Part shown: positions 3,200 to 59,265 of the stretch, piece after piece
Layout: every line of letters begins with the position of its first letter
Numbering within the stretch: the first letter of the stretch is position 1
Assembly: GCA_965204445.1 (NCBI GenBank)
Contig: OZ241992.1
Coordinates: 988,095 to 1,052,094, forward strand
Length of the DNA: 64,000 bases
Direction: 5' to 3'
Origin: Dehalococcoidia bacterium
GTDB taxonomy: Bacteria; Chloroflexota; Dehalococcoidia; Lucifugimonadales; JADFKI01
Translations under genes and position numbers: made by a program
Notes under the pieces: generated by a model
The model's input: only the letters and a program-made list of their open reading frames with translations
Database searches by the model: none
Told to the model about the DNA's origin: nothing

Positions 3200-4507
3200 A
3201 TGCGCTACCTAATTCTACCCTCCCGGAAGTATGTTAACGCGTTGCGAGCGACAACTCGAACCGCGCTGCGGATGGCGGCTTGGAACGCTCTGTTCATCAT
3301 CTCAGGTCTGCTGCTGATTGCGCTTGCCGGCGAGGCGTACTTTCGGTTGACAAGGCCCTTTATGCAGACTAGCGCTCATTTTCAGTTCGTAGATGGAGTT
3401 GGGCTTATCCGGGAACCCAACTCTGAATTGCGCTATACGAACTTGAGCGAGGATATATACACCGCTTCGCGCATCAATAGCCAGGGCTTTCTCGACCGCG
3501 AACCCGTCAGCGCTGAACGCGCCGCCGAGGGTTGCCGCATAGCCTTCATCGGCGATTCTTTCGTGGAAGGGCGGGAGGCGCCCATCGCCGATAAATTTCA
3601 TGTCAGACTGGAAGAGATGGCGGCGCGCGAACTGCCGCATTTGAACATTGCCACGCAGTCTTATGGAATATGGGGCACAGGCCAAATACATCAGCTTCCG
3701 TTTTACGATAACTACGCACGGCATCTGAACCCGAAATTGGTTGTGCTGAGCTTCCATCTCAATGACTTCGTCGACAATTCAACTGCGCTGCGTTCGCTAA
3801 GGTTCGGCCTAGATCCTGACCGAATGCCATATACGTCCGCTCAAAAAGACGCGAGCGGGGTTATGAAACTGCGCCCGCCCGATCCGGAATATCAGCGGTT
3901 TATACTGCCAAGGCCGCCGAAGCAACCGAAGTCCTGGCGCGAGAATGCGCATGATCGGCTGCTTCGGGTTTCATACTTTGCGATATGGCTGAATGAAAAG
4001 AATATATGGCGGGCATCAGCAAGAGACCACAGGAAGCCCGATCGTGCGGCGTGGGCGGCTACAATAGCCGAGCGTCCCTGTTGCGCATCACTAGCAGACT
4101 GGCGACCTAGCGAAAACTTCCCTTTTACAACGGACGCGGAGCGCGAAAAAGATCCTTTTACGAGGGACGCGCAACTATCGCCCGTCTATGAAGAAGCGCT
4201 GGAATACACCGCTTTCGGCATAGAGCAGTTCAAGCAGCGCGCCGACCGCGACGGCGCTGCGCTTGCAATACTTGCAGCCACCGATAGTATGGGAACGCGG
4301 GACGATCCTCAGTTCGAGCGCCTAAACTCCATTGCCGAACCGCTCGGCATTCCCGTAATCAGCCAGTACGATTACGTCCTCAGACAGGGACACAATTACC
4401 AGGACGCCCGATGGCATTACGACTTCCATTGGAACGCCACCGGACACCAATGGGCGGCCGAAGCCATCCTCGAATGGTTGAAAGAAAACCAAGAGGTGTG
4501 CGACTGA
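3200..4507 (+). CDS. Membrane-anchored SGNH / AlgJ-AlgX-like hydrolase or acyltransferase, paralogue 2
   Basis: Same architecture as 1603..2910 (IAFIGDSFVEGRE, YDFHWNATGHQW). The upstream about 120 bp is also duplicated. A 2-bp difference near the ancestral ATG (3175) moves the start to 3200. Confidence 0.6.
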   Translation: MRYLILPSRKYVNALRATTRTALRMAAWNALFIISGLLLIALAGEAYFRLTRPFMQTSAHFQFVDGVGLIREPNSELRYTNLSEDIYTASRINSQGFLDREPVSAERAAEGCRIAFIGDSFVEGREAPIADKFHVRLEEMAARELPHLNIATQSYGIWGTGQIHQLPFYDNYARHLNPKLVVLSFHLNDFVDNSTALRSLRFGLDPDRMPYTSAQKDASGVMKLRPPDPEYQRFILPRPPKQPKSWRENAHDRLLRVSYFAIWLNEKNIWRASARDHRKPDRAAWAATIAERPCCASLADWRPSENFPFTTDAEREKDPFTRDAQLSPVYEEALEYTAFGIEQFKQRADRDGAALAILAATDSMGTRDDPQFERLNSIAEPLGIPVISQYDYVLRQGHNYQDARWHYDFHWNATGHQWAAEAILEWLKENQEVCD

Positions 4508-11746: not shown

Positions 11747-17077
<5,331 letters not shown>

Positions 17078-22542: not shown

Positions 22543-23586
22543 CTATCCAAACAACGGCATCACCCGGTCGGCGAACAGGCGCATCGACGCCTGCACCCGC
22601 TCCGTGTCCATTTCCCCCGTGTTGAACTTCAGCATCAGGTTGCGCACGCCCGCGTCGCGCATCTCCGCTATCTCATCCGCCACCTGGCGCGGCGTCCCCG
22701 CGATAAACGCCTTGCCTATATCCTCCGAATCCGACGCCGGCGCTATATCGCTGTCCGACGGCTTGGGCGCGAATTCGGCGGGATTGTAGAGACGTCGCGC
22801 GTCTCCGAAATGCTTGCGCTCGCGCGCGAACCCGTACTCCGCCATCTCGCGCGCCTCCCCATAGGTGTCCGCCACAAACACATTGCGCGACGCCCAGCAC
22901 ATATCCAGCGCCGCCTCCACCGCGTTTTCCCCGAAACCCGCGCTCAGCATCGCATCGCGATAGCCCCTAAGACGGCTCGCCAGCGTCTGCGGCGGCATTA
23001 TCCCCAGCATCACCGGCCGCCCTATCCGCGCCATCGCCAGCGTGGACGCCTCGCTTATGCACGCCCGCACAAGCGGCGGATGCGGCTTCTGATACGGCGG
23101 CGGACGCAGCATCGGAAACGCCACCCGCCAGTGTTCCCCTTCATGCCGCAAGTCTTTCGCAGTCCAAGCCTTCACCAGCAGATCCTCCGCTTCCTCTACG
23201 CGGTCTATCCCGTCCTGCATACTCAGCCCGAACCCAATGTACTCATAATGATTGAACGCCGATCCCCGCCCAATGCCCACAATCAGCCTGCCGTGGCACA
23301 GGTTATCCAGCAGCGCCGTCTGCGCCGCAAGCCGAATGGGATGATGCAGCGCCAATTCCACCACCGCGAACCCAATCCGAATTTGCCGCGTGCGCGCCGC
23401 CACCGCAGCCCCCATCACCAGCGGATCGGCGTACGCCACCGCCCCGTCAAAGTGATGCTCCGTAAGCCAAACCGCATGCAGCCCCACAGCGTCCGCCAGC
23501 TCAATCTCGCGCAGCGTCCCGTCTATCACGCCGCCATCCCCGCCCGGATTGTGGCTTACCGGAAATACAAACGAACCGAACCGCAT
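22543..23586 (-). CDS. LLM-class (luciferase-like) flavin-dependent oxidoreductase
   Basis: MRFGSFVFPVSHNPGGDG..., LHAVWLTEHHFDG, GRLIVGIGRGS. ATG 23586 lies 8 nt after GGAGG. The 59-aa upstream extension in the ORF track is rejected. Confidence 0.85.
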   Translation of the reverse strand: MRFGSFVFPVSHNPGGDGGVIDGTLREIELADAVGLHAVWLTEHHFDGAVAYADPLVMGAAVAARTRQIRIGFAVVELALHHPIRLAAQTALLDNLCHGRLIVGIGRGSAFNHYEYIGFGLSMQDGIDRVEEAEDLLVKAWTAKDLRHEGEHWRVAFPMLRPPPYQKPHPPLVRACISEASTLAMARIGRPVMLGIMPPQTLASRLRGYRDAMLSAGFGENAVEAALDMCWASRNVFVADTYGEAREMAEYGFARERKHFGDARRLYNPAEFAPKPSDSDIAPASDSEDIGKAFIAGTPRQVADEIAEMRDAGVRNLMLKFNTGEMDTERVQASMRLFADRVMPLFG

Positions 23587-23829
23587 CGTCAAAGCCTCCA
23601 TATAAGTATGCCGGTGCGCCGATATGCCGAATGCGCCAACCGCGCCTTGCGTATCGCGCAACCGCCCTTTCGCAAGTGCCGAATACGCCAAGCGCATCTT
23701 GCAACCGCCCTTTCGCAAGCGCCAACCAAGTATAACCCAATCGCCCCCCGTCTTGCCTTGCATTCAAGCCGTGAACCGCATCCGCCGCAAGCAAAACCCA
23801 ATCGGCGCGCATCTTGTTCTGCCACCCGG

Positions 23830-23858
23830 GTATTCTTAGTATTCTTAGTATTCTTAGT
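23830..23858. repeat. Perfect 9-bp tandem repeat x3 (GTATTCTTA)3
   Basis: gtattcttagtattcttagtattcttag, read directly, about 60 nt upstream of the -35 of the GLUG-protein promoter. Confidence 0.9.
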
Positions 23859-23917
23859 TGTGAGTGCCATTGTATCTAATACCACTCGATTTTGTGAATG
23901 CCAATATCGTTAATGTG

Positions 23918-23947
23918 TTGACATTGCAAACCCGCCTGCGATATGCT
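23918..23947 (+). promoter_or_regulatory. Sigma70-like promoter of the GLUG-repeat protein gene (TTGACA-18 nt-TATGCT)
   Basis: ttgaca 23918-23923 and tatgct 23942-23947, followed by AAGGAG 23986-23991 and ATG 24001. Confidence 0.6.
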
Positions 23948-24000
23948 ATTGCCTATCATACATATCAGCCACCCTAATCAAATAAAAGGAGTGTCCCAAA

Positions 24001-26026
24001 ATGTCGAAGAATATACGTTTTACCCCCCCCCCCCCCCCCCCCCCCGAAAAATCGAGATAAGTCCAAAAACCTCCGAAGCGTAAAGACCGCGCTCCGCGCC
24101 TCGACGCTCGCCGCGCTGGGGCTCCTAATCGCGCTCGCCGTCCTGCTCCCTAATGCCGCGGCCGAAGCGCAGACCACACCCGCCTCTACTGCCACGGCTA
24201 CCGCAACGCCCACCGACTACGACGCGGACAACGACGGCCTCATCGACATCAGAACCCTCGCTCAGCTCAACGCCGTCCGCCACGACCTCAACGGGGATGG
24301 CAAGCAAGGTTCCGTCAGCGCTACCGATTGGGCTACATACACAGCCGCATTCTCCAACCCCGCGTCCGGCATGGGCTGCAAACCCACCGACCACGACGAC
24401 GATACCACCACCGCCCAGAAACCCACCTGCGACGGCTACGAACTGATGGCAGACCTGGACTTCGACACCGACGGCGACGGGGATGTGGATGCAAGCGATA
24501 CCAATTCCTACGCCAACTGGGCGCCCATCGGCACAACGACCAAGCCATTCGACTCCAAATTCGAGGGCAGCCTCACCAATGGCGTGATGCCCAAAATCTC
24601 CAATCTCACAATAAGCGGCGAGTTGACGGAAGTGGGGCTGTTCGGCGCAACGGGATCCAACGCGCGCATTGAAAACGTGGGACTGGTGGATGTCAATGTG
24701 AACACAACCACTTCTGCCCGCAACGCAAAGATTAGCGCGCTGGTGGGAAACAACGCCGGCAAGATAATCGCGTGCTACTCCACGGGCGCAATAACCGCCA
24801 CTGCGGGAGCCTACCCCGACGCCGGCGGTCTAGTGGGCTACAACGGGGGAACAATAGCCGCCGCCTTCTCCCGCGCTACCGTCTATATGACGTCAAGCAG
24901 TGAAGTCTACGTGGGCGGTCTAGTGGGCTACAACGGGGGAACGATAACTGCCACCTATTCTGCGGGAGCTGTCAAGGGCAAGGGCGGCAGCGGCGTTGTG
25001 GGCGGTCTGGTGGGCTACAACGTAGGGACGATAAACGCCAGCTACTCCCGATCTCTCGTTACTTCCGTCGACGTCGATCCTACCAACATTCGCACCAGCA
25101 AGCCGACAGTCCTGGGTCTGAGCTACAACGAAAACGGCTTCAGTACAGTAACCGTTAGCTACTGGGACTCCACATTCAGCGGAGTGCCCGACGACGCGGA
25201 CGACGTGATGCCAGAGGGGAAAAACGAGGCCAGTCTTACTATGCCCATAGGCATATACGACGATTGGGACGACCTGACGATTGACGGCGCGAATGACGTT
25301 GCTCCGTGGGACTCCGTCAATAAACTGCCGCTACTGACATATGGCGGACACACCACAGACATATCAGGCAATCAACTTTTTGCGATCATGGGCAACAACT
25401 TCTGCGGCTGGGGTCCCGTTTTCGAAGGGGCACCCTGCAGGGCTTCTATACTTTCGTCAATGGGCACCGCCTCAGGTCCCTGGCTATGGCAGAGCTCCAC
25501 TGACGGCATTACTTGGGGCAGTACCCTAGTCTCCAATACCGTCTGTAGTGTACACCAGGATCGCACTTGTGGTCCGGCGTACCGAGCTACAAGCAGGTCT
25601 GAACTGTTCATACCTAGATCGGAGCATGAAGGCAAATACATCCGCGCTAAAGTACCGTTGGAAGCGGGCGGTTACGCTTATACTATGTTGCAAGGCAAAG
25701 TAAGACTTGCCCGTCCCGCTACTAACTCAATTGGGCTGAACATCCAAGGACCCAACCCGCCTCGTGTTGGAACGCAGTTAAGCGTTGTAACACGACTCAA
25801 TCAATACATGCCGTTTCTATGGCAGCGCTGCGACACCAACGGCGCCAATCCGTCAGGATGTGAGTATGTTGGAAGCAAGCGCACATACACTCCGGGGGCT
25901 GGCGATCTAAACCATTACCTCCGCGTGCATGCCTATTACGATCATCTGAGTGGCTGGACGCGCGCAACCAGCGGTTTCACGCAGCAAGTGGCTGATATTC
26001 AAAGGCCGACGCAGTGGACTGACTAA
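24001..26026 (+). CDS. Secreted GLUG-motif repeat protein; as assembled, the start codon is out of frame with the signal peptide and body because of a 23-C homopolymer
   Basis: ATG 24001 (MSKNIRFT-Pro7) terminates at TAA 24058. The +1 frame is open from 24044 to 26026 and encodes a signal peptide (KTALRASTLAALGLLIALAVLLPNAAAEAQ), Ca-binding-like DYDADNDGLIDI and DTDGDGDVDASD, and repeated GGLVGYNGGTIxAxYS (GLUG) units. That frame has no ATG/GTG/TTG upstream of the tract. Confidence 0.7.
24023..24045 (+). repeat. Homopolymeric poly(C) tract, 23 nt
   Basis: Counted directly from the sequence: 8 + 10 + 5 C between ...cgttttA and Gaaaaatcg. Confidence 0.95.
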
Positions 26027-30549: not shown

Positions 30550-33381
30550 TTACTGCCCCAACCCCGCATACCGCCGCCCCGTCACCGACGGCTCCGCGGC
30601 TAGATGGCGGCGTATCGTCGCCACGCGCTCGGCGTCTATGTCCAGCGCTTCGCATACGGCGGCGTCTAGGGCGGCGCGCGCAGGGTCGGCGTCCATGCGC
30701 GGCAGCGGCAGCAGCGCCTGTTCGCATAGCGCATCGTATTCGGCCGCCAAGCGCAGCGCCGCCGGCTCGCACAGCGCCGCAAAGTCGGGGACGGGGATCT
30801 TGCGCAGATCCGTCATTGAGAACTTAGGATAGGTCGGCTTCGTATTTGAGCGGTCGCCCAGCATCGCTAGTACGCCAACCGATGAGTTGAGATAGACGCA
30901 GAGCGCCTTTTCGAGCGCATCGGCATCTATGCCCGCTACTTCGGGCTTGCAGGGCGCCCAAGCCGAACCCAAGCAGGGATGGGCTAAGCGTACTGCCGTT
31001 ACTCTTACGGTTGGCAGGTTTATCCTGTTTGGCAGCAGCATTGTGCCGCGCTGTTCCCATAGGCGATTCGCCTGCGCCTCTTTGCCCTCTTTTGCCGTTA
31101 CAAAGGTGTCGGGCTCGGCAAGCATTGATTGCGTAACGCCCGATTTGTGGTCCCAAAGCGCGGCCATCCCAATTTCATCGGGAAAATCGGAGCGAACAAA
31201 GTTGCCGCGCAAGCCCCTTCCATCGGGTCCAATGGCGGCGATGCTTTCCAAAGGCAATGCAGCGGCAAGTTCGCTTCGCCCTAGCGAAACGAATTCGCTG
31301 ACGAGGGTGGGCGAAAGAAACTGAACCGATCCCCAGTCGCCGGCTTCTATATCGTTTGCCGAAACCCGCTGAAGCGTCCCTAACCCCCTTGCTACGGTAG
31401 AGTCGTTTTGAATCGCTTCAGCCGCAGCGTAGGCTTCAGCCGGCGTTGACGGGTTTATCGCCAAGTTGACCACCCTAGTCGGCGGCTTGCCCCCTTCGCG
31501 CCAATCCCAAACGCGGCATACCAGCAGCATTTCCCCGATGCTGGTGCTATCCGAGAAATAGATGCGCTGCGGATCGTGAGAGGTTACGATATACTCCACC
31601 CAGTAGCGGCCGCCGATGTACTTTCGTATATCTAGCGCCGATGCGTTTGTGGCGGTTACAAGCGGCAGTATTACGGCTATTTTGCTGTCCCCGCTCTTTC
31701 GCATAAAGTCCGCCAAGATTATAAAGGCGTTGCCGTTGCTTGATAGATGCACGGGCTTGTTGCTGAACAGCATCTTCTCGCGCGCCTTGATTTTGCGCTC
31801 ATCGGCGGCGCTGAACTGGTCATGGCGCAGGCTATTGCGCGTGAAGGGCGGGTTCATTATCACCAGGTCGGCGGGTTCGGACTGCGCCATGTCGTCGCCG
31901 TTTTCTACCTGAGCTACCGGCTGGGCGGCGTTGGGCCACGACATCATCTTGGGTTTCAGATCCAGAAACTCCAGCGAACCTAGGTATGCGTCGCCCTCTT
32001 CATCAACGCCTAGGAAGGCGCGCCCTATCTTCATTTTGCGAAAAGAGGTTGTAGGGGATAGCAGCCCCAGCGTAGTCGCCGCCATATGAGTTGCGGTGAG
32101 GTTGACGTCGTAGCCGCACAGCACCTGCTCGATCAGCGCCTGCGCGAAAGCGTCGTCGTCTCTGGTTTGGGGCGATAGGTCGCGGATGCGCTCCGCCGCC
32201 GCCATTAGCAGCGTGCCGGTGCCGCATGCCGGATCCACGATGCGAAGGCTGGCGACGGCGTCGGGATCGTTCCAATCGCGCATATCCTCATCTATGGCAA
32301 GCGTGGCGAGCAGCGTGGCGGCGGGAGTGGATGTGTAGAACGAGCCGTCATAGGGAGCAGAATCCAGAACCCTATGGAAGATGCGTCCCATAAGATCGTG
32401 GCGCAGTCCCGCGATGTTGCCGGCTACCGCCAGCGCCGCTTTGGCGGTTTCGCGGACGGCGTTGGTGAAGGCGGGATCGGGCGGGCAGGCTTGCAAGGCG
32501 GCTCGTCCGGTCTCGAAGATGGGCTTGTAGTCCAGCGCCAGTATCAGATTCCAAGCGTCTGAAAAGTCCGATCCGGGGTTGTCCGAATCGGCGCAGCGCT
32601 GCGCCATTTGGGGCGGCCATTCGTCGGTGAAGGGCGCATTGTCAAGAATGCGGTTATCGTATTCGGGACGCATTCCTTCGAGATGGTAATCCAAGCGCGA
32701 ATGGAACATCACGGCGGTCGCCACCACCAGCAACGCGCGCTTGGCGGCTCTGTCCCAGCGCGTTGCGTCCGTCTTGCCCGCCTTGCGCGCCTCGCGCTGG
32801 GGCAGATCCATATGCTGCGCTAGAAAGCGCCGCTGCGTTTTGTTCAGATAGGACACGGCGACGTCGAGGCTGTCGGACAGCGCCGCCGCCGTGTGGTCGG
32901 GGTTGCCGAGCTGCATGGGCGCAAGCCGAATGACGCGCGGCAGTTCGGCGGCGTCGGCTTCGTTCCATGTCGGCGCAGCGCCCTGCCGCAGTCTGTCCGG
33001 CGAGCGAATAGCCCAGAGAACGCGGCAGTTTCGCATTTGTTCTTTGCGGGTGATGCCGTCGGGGTAGCATACGGCGATAGCGCAGTCCGCGAGGTTCTGC
33101 GTAAGGCGGGCGTCGGCGTCTCTGACGGCTTCGCTGCGCTTGGCGGTGGACTGCCCTTGCTCTGCCTCAAGCGCGATCCTCGCCGATCCCACGCTGATAA
33201 GCACGTCGATGCGCCTTCTGCCCGCCGCATGCTCCTGCTTGGCGTCCAATCCCCGTTGGATCAGCAGCTCCGCCAGCCACACATTGAGGGTGTGTTCATG
33301 CTCTCTTTCAATCATGTTCGCTTTCCCCAGTTCGGTTAGGATGCGCGGGTTGGAATGCGCGGTCGGCCTTTTAGGCATCAT
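30550..33381 (-). CDS. Fused N-terminal nuclease-like domain + gamma-class N6-adenine DNA methyltransferase + C-terminal specificity-like region (Type IIG/IIL-like restriction-modification candidate)
   Basis: SAM motif I IVDPACGTGTLLMAAAERI, catalytic motif IV DLVIMNPPFTRNS, and an N-terminal RRIDVLISVGSARIALEAEQG (D-x12-E-x-E, PD-(D/E)xK-like). 943 aa, with no separate partner genes adjacent. Confidence 0.7.
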   Translation of the reverse strand: MMPKRPTAHSNPRILTELGKANMIEREHEHTLNVWLAELLIQRGLDAKQEHAAGRRRIDVLISVGSARIALEAEQGQSTAKRSEAVRDADARLTQNLADCAIAVCYPDGITRKEQMRNCRVLWAIRSPDRLRQGAAPTWNEADAAELPRVIRLAPMQLGNPDHTAAALSDSLDVAVSYLNKTQRRFLAQHMDLPQREARKAGKTDATRWDRAAKRALLVVATAVMFHSRLDYHLEGMRPEYDNRILDNAPFTDEWPPQMAQRCADSDNPGSDFSDAWNLILALDYKPIFETGRAALQACPPDPAFTNAVRETAKAALAVAGNIAGLRHDLMGRIFHRVLDSAPYDGSFYTSTPAATLLATLAIDEDMRDWNDPDAVASLRIVDPACGTGTLLMAAAERIRDLSPQTRDDDAFAQALIEQVLCGYDVNLTATHMAATTLGLLSPTTSFRKMKIGRAFLGVDEEGDAYLGSLEFLDLKPKMMSWPNAAQPVAQVENGDDMAQSEPADLVIMNPPFTRNSLRHDQFSAADERKIKAREKMLFSNKPVHLSSNGNAFIILADFMRKSGDSKIAVILPLVTATNASALDIRKYIGGRYWVEYIVTSHDPQRIYFSDSTSIGEMLLVCRVWDWREGGKPPTRVVNLAINPSTPAEAYAAAEAIQNDSTVARGLGTLQRVSANDIEAGDWGSVQFLSPTLVSEFVSLGRSELAAALPLESIAAIGPDGRGLRGNFVRSDFPDEIGMAALWDHKSGVTQSMLAEPDTFVTAKEGKEAQANRLWEQRGTMLLPNRINLPTVRVTAVRLAHPCLGSAWAPCKPEVAGIDADALEKALCVYLNSSVGVLAMLGDRSNTKPTYPKFSMTDLRKIPVPDFAALCEPAALRLAAEYDALCEQALLPLPRMDADPARAALDAAVCEALDIDAERVATIRRHLAAEPSVTGRRYAGLGQ

Positions 33382-48018: not shown

Positions 48019-51000
48019 CTAACCCGTCCGATAGCGCCGATAGCGCCGCCATACGCTCCATGCCATATACGCCGCAGCGGGGATTAGCAGCAGCCACAGC
48101 GGGAAGCCGTCGTCGTCCGGCATATTCGTCAGCGTGGCGCGCGCCATTTCGACCGTTGGCGCGGCCGCTAACGCCGTCGCGCCCGTCTGAGGCGCGGCGG
48201 TGGCGACAAGCGCAATAATGGATGCGAGCGCGGGTGTTGCGCTAGGCGTCGCCGTGGGCTCATGCGTAGCGCTAGGCGCGCGCTCAACCACAAGCGTCGT
48301 CGCGGCGGTGGGCGTCGCGCTCGGCGTGTATGTGCGCGTTGCCGTAACGCTTGCCGTAGGCGTAGCCGCCGGCGATGCAGCCGTCGCACTCGGAGCAGCC
48401 GTAGCGTTGGGCGTCGCCGTGCTGCCCCTGACCAACGCCGCAACGCTCGACGCAGGCGCCGCCGATACGCCGCCCCCAACCGACGGCGTGGCTGTAACCC
48501 GAGCCGCCGCCGTAGCCGTCGATATCGGCGTTGAGGTCGACGTCGGCGCTGCCGTAGGCGTATAAGCGCGAAGCGCGGTTGCCGTAGGCGTGGGCGCGAT
48601 CGTCGCCGTGGATGTCGGCATTGTCGTGGGCGCGAGCGTTGCCGTCGGCATTGCCATAGGCATGCGCGTGCGAGCGGGCGTCGGCGTGCGCCTTGAGCCT
48701 GATCCCCCGCCGCCGTAACTAGGTCTATATGTAGCCGTCGGCGTTGGCGTATGCGTCGTGGTTGGCACATGCGTCGCGATTGGCATTACGCCGATGGGCT
48801 CCGACTCTAGAAAGGCAGACGTCGGCGTGGGAGTGGGCGTGCCGGTGGCGGTAGGCGTATGCGTCGCCGTGGGCGTGCCGGTGGCCGTGGGCGTATGCGT
48901 AGCGGTGTATGTTGCGGTAGGCGTATGCGTTGCCGGCGGACCTTCATAGATGGGGACTGCGCCGGCCCTTGCCTGATTCGTTGGTGTTGGCGTTGGCGTC
49001 GCTGTTGGCTCTGTTCCGCCGGGAGCGCCGGCGGAAACCTCCGTGGGCGTAGCGGTGTGTGTGGCGGTGGCGGTAGGCGTGCCGGTAGCAGTGGGCGTAT
49101 GCGTGGCGGTGGGTGTAGGCGTGGGCGTGCCGGTAGCGGTGGGCGTAGCCGTGGCCGTGCCAGTTGCGGTAGGCGTGTGCGTAGAGGTAGGCGTATGTGT
49201 AGCCGTGGGCGTGCCGGTCGCAGTGGGCGTATGCGTGGCGGTGTGAGTAGCGGTAGGCGTCGGCGTAGCCGTGGCTGTAGCCGTGCCGGTTGCAGTAGGC
49301 GTAGCCGTGGCTGTAGGCGTGGGAGTTGGCGTGTCGGGGAGAAACTCTCGATCAAGAAGAAGAATACCGACATTTGAGGTCGGCGTGGGCGTAGGCGTGC
49401 CAGTTGCAGTAGGCGTATGCGTGGCGGTGGGCGTGCCGGTTGCAGTGGGCGTATGCGTGGCGGTGTGAGTTGCGGTAGGCGTGTGCGTAGGCGTGCCGGT
49501 AGCAGTGGGCGTAGCCGTGGCCGTGCCGGTTGCGGTAGGCGTATGTGTAGCCGTGGGCGTGTGTGTAGCGGTAGGCGTGCCGGTCGCAGTTGGCGTAGCC
49601 GTGGCGGTAGGCGTGGGAGTTGGCGTGTCGGGGAGAAACTCTCGATCAAGAAGAAGAATACCGACATTTGAGGTCGGCGTGGGCGTAGGCGTGCCAGTTG
49701 CAGTAGGCGTATGTGTAGCCGTGGGCGTGCCAGTAGCAGTTGGCGTAGCTGTGGCGGTAGGCGTGGGAGTAGGCGTGCCGGTAGCTGTGGCGGTAGGCGT
49801 GCCGGTAGCTGTGGGCGTAGGCGTAGGCGTGCCGGTGGCGGTGGCAGTGGGCGTAGCCGTTGCGGTAGGCGTAGCGGTGGCAGTTGGCGTGCCGGTCGCG
49901 GTAGGCGTATGCGTTGCGGTGTGTGTAGCCGTTGCGGTAGGCGTATGCGTTGCGGTGTGTGTAGCCGTTGCGGTAGGCGTATGCGTTGCGGTGTGTGTAG
50001 CGGTAGGCGTAGCCGTGGCAGTAGGTGTAGCGGTGGGCGTGGCCGTGGGCGTAGGCGTAGCCGTGCCGGTAGCAGTTGGCGTAGGTGTAGGCGTGGCGGT
50101 GGCGGTTGGCGTAGCCGTGGCGGTAGGCGTATGCGTTGCGGTGTGTGTAGCGGTAGGCGTAGCCGTTGCGGTATGTGTAGCGGTGGCAGTGCGCGTAGCC
50201 GTGGGCGTGCCGGTCGCAGTAGGTGTAGGCGTGCCGGTGGCAGTAGGCGTTCTTGTAGGCGTGCCGGTGGCAGTAGGCGTAGGCGTAGGCGTGCCGGTTG
50301 CGGTCGGCGTTCTTGTAGGCGTGTATGTCTCGGTAATCCAAAAGCGAGAGGGCGTATGCGTAGCAGTGGGCGTGCTCGTCGCGGCGCCTCCGGGCAACTC
50401 ATTGACCGGGAATAGCCTATCAGGCGTGTGCGTAGGGGTGGGCGTGCCTTCCTGTACGGGCGGACCCGGCGGAAGTGGCGGACGCGGCTTATCGCCAGGC
50501 AACAGAAAATCAGACGTAGGCGTGGCAGTTGGCGTGCCGGTTGCGGTAGGTGTGCCGGTAGCGGTCGGCGTGCCTGTGGAAGTTGGCGTAGGCGTTGGTG
50601 TGCCAGTTGCAGTAGGCGTGCCGGTGGCAGTTGGCGTAGGCGTGCCGGTTGCGGTTGGCGTTCGTGTAGGCGTGGATGTCTCGATAACCCAAAAGCGATC
50701 GGGCGTATCCGTAGCCGTGGGCGTGCTTGTCGCGGTGGCTCCGGGCAGCTCATTGCCCGGGAATAGCCTTTCAGGCGTGTGCGTAGGGGTGGGCGTGCCT
50801 CCCTGTACAGGCGGACCCGGCGGGCGCGGCTCATCGCCAGGCAACAGAAAATCAGGCGTATGCGTGGCGGTAGGCGTGCCGGTGGCAGTGGGCGTAGGCG
50901 TGCCGGTGGCGGTTGGCGTAGGCGTGATGGTGCCTGTAGCGGTTGGCGTGGAAGTTTCTATAACAACCGCCGGCGTGTTCGTTGGGTCAACCCCGACGCC

Positions 51001-51417
51001 AATGTTGTTGTTGCGGGGCGTGTTCGTCGGCGTAGGCGTGGGTGTAGCCGTGCTCGCCGGATCAATTCCTACGCCGACTCCGACGCCGCTATCTCTATCG
51101 CTATCGGGCGTGTTCGTCGGCGTAGGCGTCGGATTGCCTGGTTGCGGCTGTGGCGGCGGCGGTGGCTGCTGCTCATCCGGGAACTGGTTCGTGCGCGGGC
51201 TGAACCGGCTATCAACGGCCGGCGTCCGCGTAGGGGTTGGCGTGCGCGTGAACGCTGCGCTTCTCAAAACGCCGCCCGTCTCAGGCGCGGCCGCCCACGA
51301 CGTCGTCAGCGGATTGCTGCTTGAAACCTGCGCCAGCGCGACCGGCAACGCAATCGCCAGCAATGCGCCGAACACCAGCCGAACTATAGAGCGCCTAACG
51401 CGAGGGGAGGGGGACAA
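48019..51417 (-). CDS. Giant Thr/Pro/Ala-rich repeat surface protein (signal peptide + C-terminal TM anchor), mucin-like
   Basis: N-terminal [24 protein letters not shown]. Hundreds of [16 protein letters not shown]-type units. C-terminal [26 protein letters not shown]. Of the overlapping ORFs, only this frame has sensible termini. Confidence 0.7.
49298..49714. repeat. Two near-identical ~123-bp segments spaced 294 bp apart inside the Thr/Pro-rich gene (encode [37 protein letters not shown])
   Basis: Direct comparison of 49298-49420 with 49592-49714 shows 1-2 mismatches. Confidence 0.85.
50291..50855. repeat. Two ~215-bp ~90 %-identical segments spaced 351 bp apart inside the Thr/Pro-rich gene (encode ...[32 protein letters not shown]...[16 protein letters not shown])
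   Basis: Direct comparison of 50291-50512 with 50642-50855; one 11-nt indel. Confidence 0.8.
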
Positions 51418-58908: not shown

Positions 58909-59265
58909 CGGTTGCCTCCTTGATTTCCTGCAATAAACAATAGGGGGGGCAATGCAATCAGGGGAATATAACAGGGTAAGATATGCTCGGGGGATATATC
59001 AAGATAGTTCAACGGGATATTTCAGAGATTGCGCGCGCTTGCCGCTCGAATGCGCTTTGGATGCTTGGATATACGGCATTTTACTGCAAGATGCGCAAAA
59101 TGCTGAATATGAGCGCCGCTGTGAGTGTGTTTAGCGCGCTTGGCGTATGCGGACATCTACGCCCTTGCGCCGCATTTCGTAGGAAATAGACGCCCGCTTG
59201 CCCGCCCTACCGCGTTATCCCAACCACACTATCACAGCGAATAATGAATACTATTATACTGGCGC

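Follow-up and report, generated by a model that had tools for sequence, protein, structure and literature searches.

Simple-repeat phase variation is textbook biology for a few cultured pathogens and commensals. In Neisseria, the repeats of pilC (poly-G) and of the opa family (CTCTT) are found in the signal-peptide coding region, downstream of the start codon and upstream of the codons for the mature protein, where they set the reading frame of an exported surface protein. The opa genes occur as several paralogues per genome with a common conserved 5′ end, each able to switch on its own. To our knowledge, hardly any case of phase variation via simple repeats is on record for Chloroflexota or for uncultured bacteria from the environment or from symbioses. 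The literature searched contained no paper on phase variation in Dehalococcoidia or in sponge symbionts, in agreement with the preliminary description of the locus presented here, which had called such a switch an unrecognised feature of the lineage.

Two further groups of loci are relevant for comparison. The sialidase gene nanH3 of Gardnerella carries a poly-C tract of 8–14 nt after the signal peptide, the variation of which was observed in cultures via cloning (bioRxiv 10.1101/2020.09.16.300947). In Campylobacter jejuni, Helicobacter pylori and Bordetella pertussis, G/C homopolymers are over-represented and located at the 5′ ends of surface-structure genes; such poly-G/C contingency loci are polymorphic in length between genomes, and their instability grows with length (PMC1891110, PMC5084427).

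The window analysed in this work, i.e. the whole stretch of 64,000 nucleotides, contains a poly-C tract at the 5′ end of a gene for a GLUG-repeat protein. Among the described systems, pilC/opa of Neisseria and nanH3 of Gardnerella resemble this locus most closely. With the former the locus shares the position of the repeat and the presence of several paralogues with a conserved 5′ end. [quoted passage not shown] As in nanH3, the poly-C adjoins the codons for the signal peptide of a (here predicted) exported protein, the lineage lies outside the Proteobacteria, full-length protein is obtained only from every third length, and gene callers report an internal ORF devoid of a signal peptide; the annotated product of the window gene (P0003, 551 aa) is of this kind. 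In contrast to nanH3, known from cultures, the present tracts comprise 12–31 C, precede the hydrophobic core, belong to a cassette common to several paralogues, and are described by comparison. The C. jejuni, H. pylori and B. pertussis loci are numerous and reside in diverse genes of host-restricted pathogens, whereas here a single gene family carries the tract within the 173 kb examined. Distinctive of the present case are the new lineage, the unusually long tracts, and the modular cassette common to several paralogues.

The tract and its reading frames

A promoter scan located a sigma-70-type promoter-like site on the + strand (23918–23947; 10 of 12 matches) that presumably serves the gene. 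Its hexamers TTGACA (23918–23923) and TATGCT (23942–23947) are separated by an 18-nt spacer; across the loci read, the former does not vary, and the latter occurs as TATGCT, TACGCT, TACTCT or TATACT. The Shine–Dalgarno sequence AAGGAG (23986–23991, + strand), found in every copy, lies 9 nt 5′ of ATG 24001, and the poly-C tract (24023–24045, + strand; 23 nt, uninterrupted) starts 22 nt after this start codon. As assembled, the frame opened by ATG 24001 (24001–24060, + strand) comprises MSKNIRFT, seven prolines, and EKSR. It translates as MSKNIRFTPPPPPPPEKSR and terminates at TAA 24058–24060, which represents the OFF reading. The body frame (24044–26026, + strand; 660 codons) holds no ATG, GTG or TTG from its upstream stop, TAA 23975–23977, up to the tract, and is reached from ATG 24001 only with a tract length of 3n+1. 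Direct reading of the DNA reproduced all of these elements, including the lack of an own start in the long frame, as they had been described at the outset. For some copies, the window not among them, gene callers chose GTG 23991 or ATG 23943 as start in the other two frames; the former overlaps the Shine–Dalgarno sequence, the latter lies within the predicted −10 box, and both are probably artefacts. The body frame of the window is closed upstream of the tract at TAA 23975.

The frame logic was followed with in silico alleles of 12 to 32 C. Each 3n+1 length gave a full-length product of 671–677 aa, among them 22 and 25 C, the two lengths predicted beforehand to join both frames. All other lengths gave products of 16–29 aa, with termination after EKSR for 3n+2 alleles and after RKIEISPKTSEA for 3n alleles. 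Natural in-frame alleles have 22, 25 and 31 C, and in homologues of 681–731 aa reading continues through the tract.

The length of the tract is far above chance expectation. A run of 12 C did not occur in any of 100 dinucleotide-preserving shuffles of the window, and the 173 kb examined contain no C/G run of at least 9 nt outside the cassette tracts, all 13 such runs being these tracts. The second-longest C/G runs of the window measure 8 nt. On brief inspection, the shorter runs C7 at 1650, C8 at 18854, C8 at 55478 and G7 at 58943 bear no resemblance to the cassette.

Tract length among related copies

Thirteen gene copies from related “Dehalococcoidia bacterium” MAGs, the window included, were read as DNA. 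All comparative data stem from ENA/NCBI assemblies; scans of JGI metagenome contigs for leader plus tract and for the −35 region of the cassette gave no matches. The tracts comprise 12, 14, 15, 20, 20, 21, 22, 23, 24, 25, 26, 29 and 31 C, and the N-termini of further homologous proteins imply 18 and 27 C as well. Genomes carry from one to three or more copies; a second paralogue in the window's own genome is P0023. At the locus syntenic with that of the window, L001 has 22 C and is read in frame from the same start codon, L006 has 29 C and L009 has 20 C, as phase variation predicts for an orthologous locus. Copies with a rhodanese gene downstream have 23, 22, 29 and 20 C, three of them also following rpoB and two luciferase-like genes. 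Copies upstream of Phos_pyr_kin and homoserine dehydrogenase genes have 12 and 24 C, as well as 21 C in L002, the downstream DNA of which is 93% identical to that of L007, and copies before a ~316–326-aa gene and Eco57I have 15 and 31 C. The tract length differs in every case in which copies have common flanking genes. In flanking DNA, the nearest relatives share about 93% identity, so that the length differences may have accumulated over long times; a search for a strain-level relative via an identical neighbouring rhodanese protein returned none.

The frame classes 0/1/2 are represented by 4, 3 and 6 of the 13 copies, a distribution without frame preference (chi-square against uniform, p = 0.58). 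This disfavours both an ordinary gene and a fixed recoding site, because either would hold one frame. The tract is uninterrupted in all 13 DNA copies, and of the ~31 tracts deduced from protein sequences only two, in P0015 and P0071, contain interruptions, which argues that the tract is maintained. Among called proteins, in-frame copies are rarer than one third (about 7 of 39; binomial p about 0.03); this could reflect sampling bias, or expression that does not depend on ATG 24001 alone.

Consensus sequences from long reads are least reliable in long homopolymers, and for runs above 20 nt in long-read assemblies the consensus may be off by 1–2 nt. The ON/OFF call is therefore uncertain for any single copy, and the assignment of the window copy with 23 C to OFF is provisional, since its length may be wrong by ±1. 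Of the original OFF assignment, the frame logic holds and the exact count may be one off. The gene might be an ordinary constitutive one with a true tract of 22 or 25 C and no switch, the more so as the closest syntenic orthologue (L001) is in frame with 22 C and the related genomes each consist of one contig of about 3.2 Mb, as is typical of long-read assemblies. We consider this very unlikely. Errors of ±1–2 nt cannot yield a range of 12–31 C in 13 copies with invariant flanks, and the 4/3/6 distribution is not expected if all copies are truly in frame. The range moreover spans Illumina-style scaffolds (12, 15 and 20 C) and contigs at 82–93× coverage. Irrespective of the exact assembled length, such a long run of C should be unstable in vivo. 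The length error named as an alternative in the preliminary description thus fails for the family-wide range and is possible for the exact count at this locus.

A +1 slip of tRNA-Pro at CCC-N is among the classical frameshifts, and ribosomes stall on polyproline. The tract could act as a recoding or rheostat site rather than as a DNA switch, with either stuttering of RNA polymerase on the C run or such a tRNA slip at a stalled ribosome providing some full-length protein from every allele and length tuning the amount. CCC-C is the classical +1 slippery context, the 3n+2 allele of the window requires exactly a +1 shift into the body frame, and the runs exceed the length of the RNA:DNA hybrid, so that realignment is physically possible; the absent frame preference is likewise compatible with length-independent expression. 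Programmed sites, however, hold a fixed frame relation in orthologues, while all three relations occur here. A fixed recoding site was rejected on these grounds. An Rfam search of 23400–24400 gave no RNA family and no stimulatory structure. According to PMC5084427 (citing Wagner 1990) and PMC3711429, most documented cases of transcriptional slippage concern A/T runs, and G/C runs are considered less prone to it. Recoding would, in addition, act atop DNA-level length changes and not in their place. We regard it as an unlikely substitute for the DNA switch, although OFF alleles could be leaky if RNA polymerase slips or if ribosomes shift by +1 on CCC-C.

The encoded protein and the 5′ cassette

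The body frame begins with a predicted Sec-type signal peptide (24047–24163, + strand), KNRDKSKNLRSVKTALR, followed by a hydrophobic core and PNAAA/EAQ. Its K/R-rich n-region, hydrophobic core and AAA/EAQ motif are nearly invariant in the family, and AlphaFold places a helix at residues 15–33. D-x-D-x-DG-like motifs follow the signal peptide. The subsequent GLUG repeats (residues about 172–375; 24557–25168, + strand) form a β-helix according to Pfam, AlphaFold and Foldseek. With 24.1 bits (E = 4.2e-5) against a gathering cut-off of 20.5, the protein belongs to Pfam GLUG PF07581, which is also found in many homologues, and AlphaFold pLDDT in the β-helix is mostly 92–98. The presence of signal peptide, D-x-D-x-DG-like motifs and GLUG repeats in this frame had been proposed earlier and is borne out by these results; NCBIfam holds no family for the protein. 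In Foldseek, the β-helix matches the IgA1 protease of Gemella haemolysans (PDB 7uvk; 290 columns, 20% identity), in which GLUG repeats form a β-helix as well. Only the β-helix aligns; the present protein has a different, Ca-binding-like N-terminal domain and two C-terminal Ig/FnIII-like domains (25436–25993, + strand) that evolve fast and have tandem FnIII and Ig domains as best Foldseek matches. The protein is not regarded as an IgA protease, because Pfam and NCBIfam searches detected no peptidase family in it. It is predicted to be an exported protein of surface type that evolves fast, as is usual for products controlled by such switches, and its role is taken to be binding or adhesion.

The gene body (at least 659 codons) is intact in every copy, the out-of-frame ones included. 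For codons 1–370, dN/dS is 0.13 between the window and L006, both OFF as assembled, and 0.13–0.3 for most other pairs; from codon 371 to the end it is 0.6–1.09. Out-of-frame copies are hence under purifying selection and not pseudogenes. Fixed inactivation of a redundant paralogue was weighed nonetheless, since the family is large, with several paralogues per genome, and other frameshifts are found in some of its members (L011/P0076 and the P0008 copies). This reading is barely credible for the window gene: its 660 codons past the tract are free of stops, dN/dS of codons 1–370 is 0.13–0.2 against both the 29-C and the 22-C orthologue, and promoter, Shine–Dalgarno sequence, ATG and leader are perfectly conserved. 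Given the intact body and the low dN/dS over codons 1–370, it was rejected.

Promoter, 5′ UTR, Shine–Dalgarno sequence, ATG, 8-codon leader, poly-C and the n-region of the signal peptide together constitute a conserved, modular 5′ cassette of ~175 nt (23908–24082, + strand). Homology among the 13 copies sets in abruptly at CGTTAATGTRTTGACA, with BLAST matches starting at window position 23908. Paralogues are about 90–93% identical in the cassette, 74% on average in the gene body, and about 40% farther upstream. The 22 nt preceding the tract, ATGTCGAAGAATATACGTTTTA, are 100% identical in 13 of 13 copies, and ~40 nt 3′ of the tract are nearly invariant. Both out-of-frame stops (GATAAG and CGTAA) are kept in all nine aligned copies. 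In L011, a cassette-free copy at the orthologous locus, homology is confined to the part from KTALRASTL onwards (window position 24083). Paralogues that start with MDIEGNV... or MLRTFFDF... combine other 5′ ends with the same signal-peptide core and are devoid of the tract, which identifies the tract as part of an exchangeable regulatory module. IS1 elements are located directly 5′ of the cassette in three copies.

Proposed switch and implications

Taken together, the data reveal a homopolymer in the 5′ coding region that toggles the frame, varies in length between conserved flanks, and precedes a body that is intact and constrained in OFF alleles and codes for a presumably environment-facing product. 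These are the features of contingency loci. The poly-C tract is therefore probably the variable element of a homopolymer contingency locus, i.e. a slipped-strand ON/OFF switch. The phase-variation reading of the preliminary description is supported by the range of 12–31 C, the occurrence of all three frames, and the intact, constrained bodies. Use of the promoter, export, the rate of slippage, population-level switching and the selective agent are inferred from the sequences compared.

In the proposed mechanism, promoter, Shine–Dalgarno sequence and ATG would direct synthesis of the 8-residue leader MSKNIRFT, after which the poly-C would be read as prolines. With a tract of 3n+1 (22, 25, 31...), the ribosome would continue into the Sec signal peptide and produce a secreted or surface protein of ~675 aa with a Ca-binding-like N-domain, a GLUG β-helix and two variable Ig-like domains. 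Any other length would lead to one of the two conserved stops, 4 or 12 codons past the tract, and no exported protein would be made, because the body frame offers no start codon ahead of the signal peptide. Runs of 12–31 identical bases would frequently gain or lose units at replication, so that each cell lineage may flip the gene on and off randomly and reversibly. Several copies per genome would switch independently and generate mixed surface types within a population, a form of bet-hedging against host, phages or grazers.

As the tracts are unusually long (31 C correspond to 10 prolines), more than a binary switch is conceivable. A more speculative and rather doubtful extension is a portable phase-variation cassette, moved by recombination between surface-protein paralogues, in which long tracts would also grade expression, be it by polyproline stalling and +1 slippage on CCC-C or by G-quadruplex/i-motif formation in runs of at least 15 nt. 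Such a device might provide a combinatorial, tunable surface repertoire to an uncultured, probably sponge-associated Chloroflexota symbiont. Its portability is supported by the locus before the ~316-aa gene and Eco57I, which has the cassette in some genomes and a tract-free 5′ end in one, and by the IS1 elements adjoining three of the copies.

For annotation, genes of this type are misread by gene callers in three ways: truncated without signal peptide, started at a GTG that overlaps the Shine–Dalgarno sequence, or extended into the promoter. Long-read metagenomes contain the read-level data for a measurement of switching in situ. If the slipped-strand switch is real, members of this lineage would possess a few fast-evolving secreted proteins that switch independently of one another, which would indicate strong fluctuating selection on the cell surface, be it by host recognition, phagocytosis, phages or grazers.

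Anatomy and frame logic of the GLUG locus

Direct reading of the sequence confirmed every element of the preliminary description, in which a poly-C phase-variation switch had been proposed, and the position of each. A consensus promoter scan identified TTGACA (23918–23923) and TATGCT (23942–23947), separated by an 18-nt spacer (10/12 matches). These are followed by AAGGAG (23986–23991), an ATG start codon at 24001 and a tract of 23 uninterrupted C (24023–24045), all on the + strand. Translation from ATG 24001 provides MSKNIRFT, seven Pro and EKSR before the stop TAA (24058–24060, +). The body, i.e. the 660-codon frame of the signal peptide and GLUG repeats, extends as an open frame over 24044–26026 (+). 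Upstream it is closed by TAA 23975–23977, and no ATG, GTG or TTG is found in this frame between that stop and the tract. The earliest in-frame ATG 3' of the tract is located at 24371, where the public gene call, P0003, begins (551 aa, without signal peptide). Two alternative start codons in the other frames were rejected: GTG 23991 overlaps the Shine–Dalgarno (SD) sequence and ATG 23943 lies inside the −10 box, and in the window neither can be used, since the frame is closed by TAA 23975.

Runs of at least 12 C were absent from 100 of 100 dinucleotide-preserving shuffles of the window, a piece of bacterial chromosome with a GC content of 60.6% in which the second-longest C/G runs measure 8 nt. 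Neighbours of the GLUG gene are rpoC/rpoB and two luciferase-like monooxygenase genes to one side and the genes for rhodanese and RNase D to the opposite side.

The window allele was rebuilt in silico with 12–32 C. Every 3n+1 length resulted in a full-length protein of 671–677 aa from ATG 24001, while 3n+2 lengths terminate at a conserved GATAAG and 3n lengths at a conserved CGTAA, 12 codons past the tract. The predicted fusion of the two frames at 22 or 25 C is thus borne out, and it is realised naturally in L001 (22 C) and L005 (25 C), two related loci from ‘Dehalococcoidia bacterium’ MAGs. Together with L012 (31 C), these in-frame alleles start exactly with MSKNIRFT-Pro(n)-KNRDKSK.

A perfect tandem repeat with a 9-nt unit, GTATTCTTA, is present in 3.2 copies (23830–23858), some 60 nt 5' of the −35 box; the syntenic L006 has one copy only. 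It is a second length-variable repeat adjoining the candidate switch.

Tract length and selection among related copies

The 660-aa frame, used as a protein query, provided 1628 homologues, and genomes contain several paralogues each. Many N-termini represent one upstream DNA read in three frames (MSKNIRFT; (M/V)SQNVEEYTFY; ...KRSVPKCRRIYVL), followed by 4–10 Pro and KNRDKSKNLRSV, and further copies are annotated as shortened proteins beginning MGCK; both patterns are as expected from gene calling where poly-C length varies from copy to copy. When species-representative genomes were scanned for exact matches, the leader occurred only in two ‘Dehalococcoidia bacterium’ MAGs, each with a contig of ~3.2 Mb. 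Flanking genes in related assemblies are ~93–95% identical to the window, which is therefore assigned to an uncultured member of the Dehalococcoidia (Chloroflexota). We suspect that the PANK22-1_SAMN..._METAG labels on some related contigs denote sponge metagenomes.

The DNA of 13 cassette copies was read, window included. Homology between copies has a sharp onset at window 23908, with CGTTAATGTRTTGACA; all 13 share ATGTCGAAGAATATACGTTTTA at 100% identity, and the post-tract sequence is almost invariant too. The tracts comprise 12, 14, 15, 20, 20, 21, 22, 23, 24, 25, 26, 29 and 31 C. Within each group with common flanking genes, every copy has another length: window 23, L001 22, L006 29 and L009 20 (rhodanese downstream and, except in L009, rpoB and two luciferase-like genes upstream); L007 12, L013 24 and L002 21 (Phos_pyr_kin and homoserine dehydrogenase downstream, L002 being assigned by 93% identical downstream DNA); and L008 15 and L012 31 (a ~316–326-aa gene and Eco57I downstream). 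No frame is preferred, as the three classes hold 4, 3 and 6 copies (not different from uniform, p = 0.58). All C/G runs of at least 9 nt in 173 kb (window plus 13 loci) are cassette tracts. In-frame alleles are a minority of the called proteins (~7/39), which may reflect sampling bias, or OFF may be the commoner state.

The rival named in the preliminary description was a homopolymer length error in the assembly. A consensus error of ±1 nt is realistic for a 23-mer, and the OFF call at the window locus is therefore provisional; a range of 12–31 C, across short-read-style scaffolds and long-read contigs at 82–93x coverage, is however not explicable in this manner. Alternatively, OFF alleles could be leaky due to recoding, by RNA polymerase slippage or by tRNA-Pro +1 slippage on CCC-C during polyproline stalling, and the window allele indeed requires exactly a +1 shift. 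Still, a programmed recoding site is expected to keep a fixed frame relationship, and the 13 copies do not. As for transcriptional slippage, G/C runs are regarded as less prone to it than A/T runs, according to PMC5084427 (citing Wagner 1990) and PMC3711429. Recoding could modulate a DNA-level switch but could not replace it.

Out-of-frame alleles are under selection. Each retains an intact body of at least 659 codons. For codons 1–370, comparison of the window (23 C) with L006 (29 C), two out-of-frame alleles, gives a dN/dS of 0.13, and most pairs fall at 0.13–0.3. On these observations and the uninterrupted tracts, the pseudogene reading was rejected. The last ~290 codons change far more rapidly (dN/dS 0.6–1.09), which we read as probable diversifying or relaxed selection on the distal domains. 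Cassette identity among paralogues is ~90–93% versus a body mean of 74%, and constraint on the cassette or its concerted evolution therefore follows. The tract is uninterrupted in 13/13 DNA copies and substituted in only two of ~31 protein-inferred tracts (P0015 and P0071), which suggests that it is kept up rather than decaying. The two interrupted tracts read YPAPHPPPPPP and YHPPPP; point substitutions within their poly-C would stabilise the tract.

Apparent cassette exchange, encoded protein and other window features

Paralogues with other 5' ends share the signal-peptide core and are devoid of polyproline; among the proteins listed, these ends are MDIEGNVRCG... (9), MLRTFFDFRR... (42) and MILTS... 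(3). The locus with the ~316-aa gene and Eco57I carries the cassette in L008 (1905–4004) and L012 (3001–5121), and a tract-free MDIEG-type 5' end in L011 (2643–4722). Because homology between L008 and L011 starts only at KTALRASTL (window 24083), recombination seems to exchange the 5' module. IS1-family genes, encoding a 94-aa HTH protein and a 153-aa DDE_Tnp_IS1, immediately precede the cassette in L001 (3205–3743), L009 (2061–2522) and L012 (2077–2836). The 200 nt upstream of the cassette are 99% identical between L001 and L009, although the loci otherwise differ.

In the tract-free L011 paralogue, a 1-nt deletion in a short run, CTCCCCAAC (2760–2790, signal-peptide coding region), shifts the body into another frame. 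The proteins concerned are P0008 and P0076, and P0008, from another contig, shows the same alternative reading. Large N6-methyltransferase/Eco57I-type genes (943–972 aa, type IIG-like) are found within a few kb of several GLUG gene copies (window 30550–33381, − strand; L008 5620–8004; L011 6154–7722; L012 6637–8121).

Pfam detects the GLUG motif in the product, and NCBIfam gave no match. In the AlphaFold model (38 homologues, mean pLDDT 81, pTM 0.79), the signal peptide forms an N-terminal helix. A Thr/Ala/Pro linker of low complexity, a compact domain bearing D-x-D-x-DG-type motifs and a long beta-helix are also seen, and the C-terminus folds into two beta-sandwich domains. In Foldseek, the sandwiches match tandem FnIII/Ig domains and the beta-helix matches the GLUG region of Gemella haemolysans IgA1 protease (7uvk; 290 columns, 20% identity). 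No peptidase domain was found with Pfam or NCBIfam. We read the product as a predicted exported binding or adhesion-type protein.

Elsewhere in the window, a 1132-aa ORF (48019–51417, − strand) is made up nearly throughout of TPTATG-type Thr/Pro/Ala repeats; it has a hydrophobic N-terminal segment and a membrane anchor at the C-terminus, and Pfam gives no match. It explains the extreme GC skew of +0.3 to +0.4 at 49–51 kb and looks like a mucin-like surface protein. The rpoC gene (11747–17077, − strand) is unusually long (1776 aa); the best-matching stretch of its first conserved domain, RNA_pol_Rpb1_1, does not begin until about residue 583, indicative of a large lineage-specific N-terminal insertion. 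Two paralogues in tandem (1603–2910 and 3200–4507), both of 435 aa, show weak GDSL-lipase similarity, and the first has a C7 run (1650–1656) inside its first 18 codons.

A probable homopolymer contingency locus

Every defining feature of a contingency locus that can be tested in sequence is present at the window locus, and we consider a homopolymer contingency locus the best-supported and a highly probable explanation. Slipped-strand mispairing during replication would alter tract length, and only 3n+1 tracts would place the signal peptide and body in frame with the one start codon that is served by an SD. The sequences themselves document the anatomy, the frame logic, the length polymorphism, the absence of a preferred frame and the selection acting on OFF alleles. 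Use of the promoter, export, the selective agent, the rate of switching and its reversal within populations are what we infer.

The repeat lies in the signal-peptide coding region as in Neisseria pilC and opa, and as in opa the 5' end is common to members of a multigene family. In its working the tract would resemble the G/C tracts of Campylobacter, Helicobacter and Bordetella. The closest case is Gardnerella nanH3, with a poly-C of 8–14 nt beside the signal peptide, for which tract variation within cultures has been demonstrated (bioRxiv 10.1101/2020.09.16.300947). Full-text literature searches yielded no account of phase variation from Dehalococcoidia, Chloroflexi or sponge symbionts. To our knowledge, tracts of up to 31 nt exceed those of known systems. 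The lineage is new for phase variation, and a modular cassette common to several paralogues is a new aspect; the copies, of which a genome has one to three or more, would switch independently of one another.
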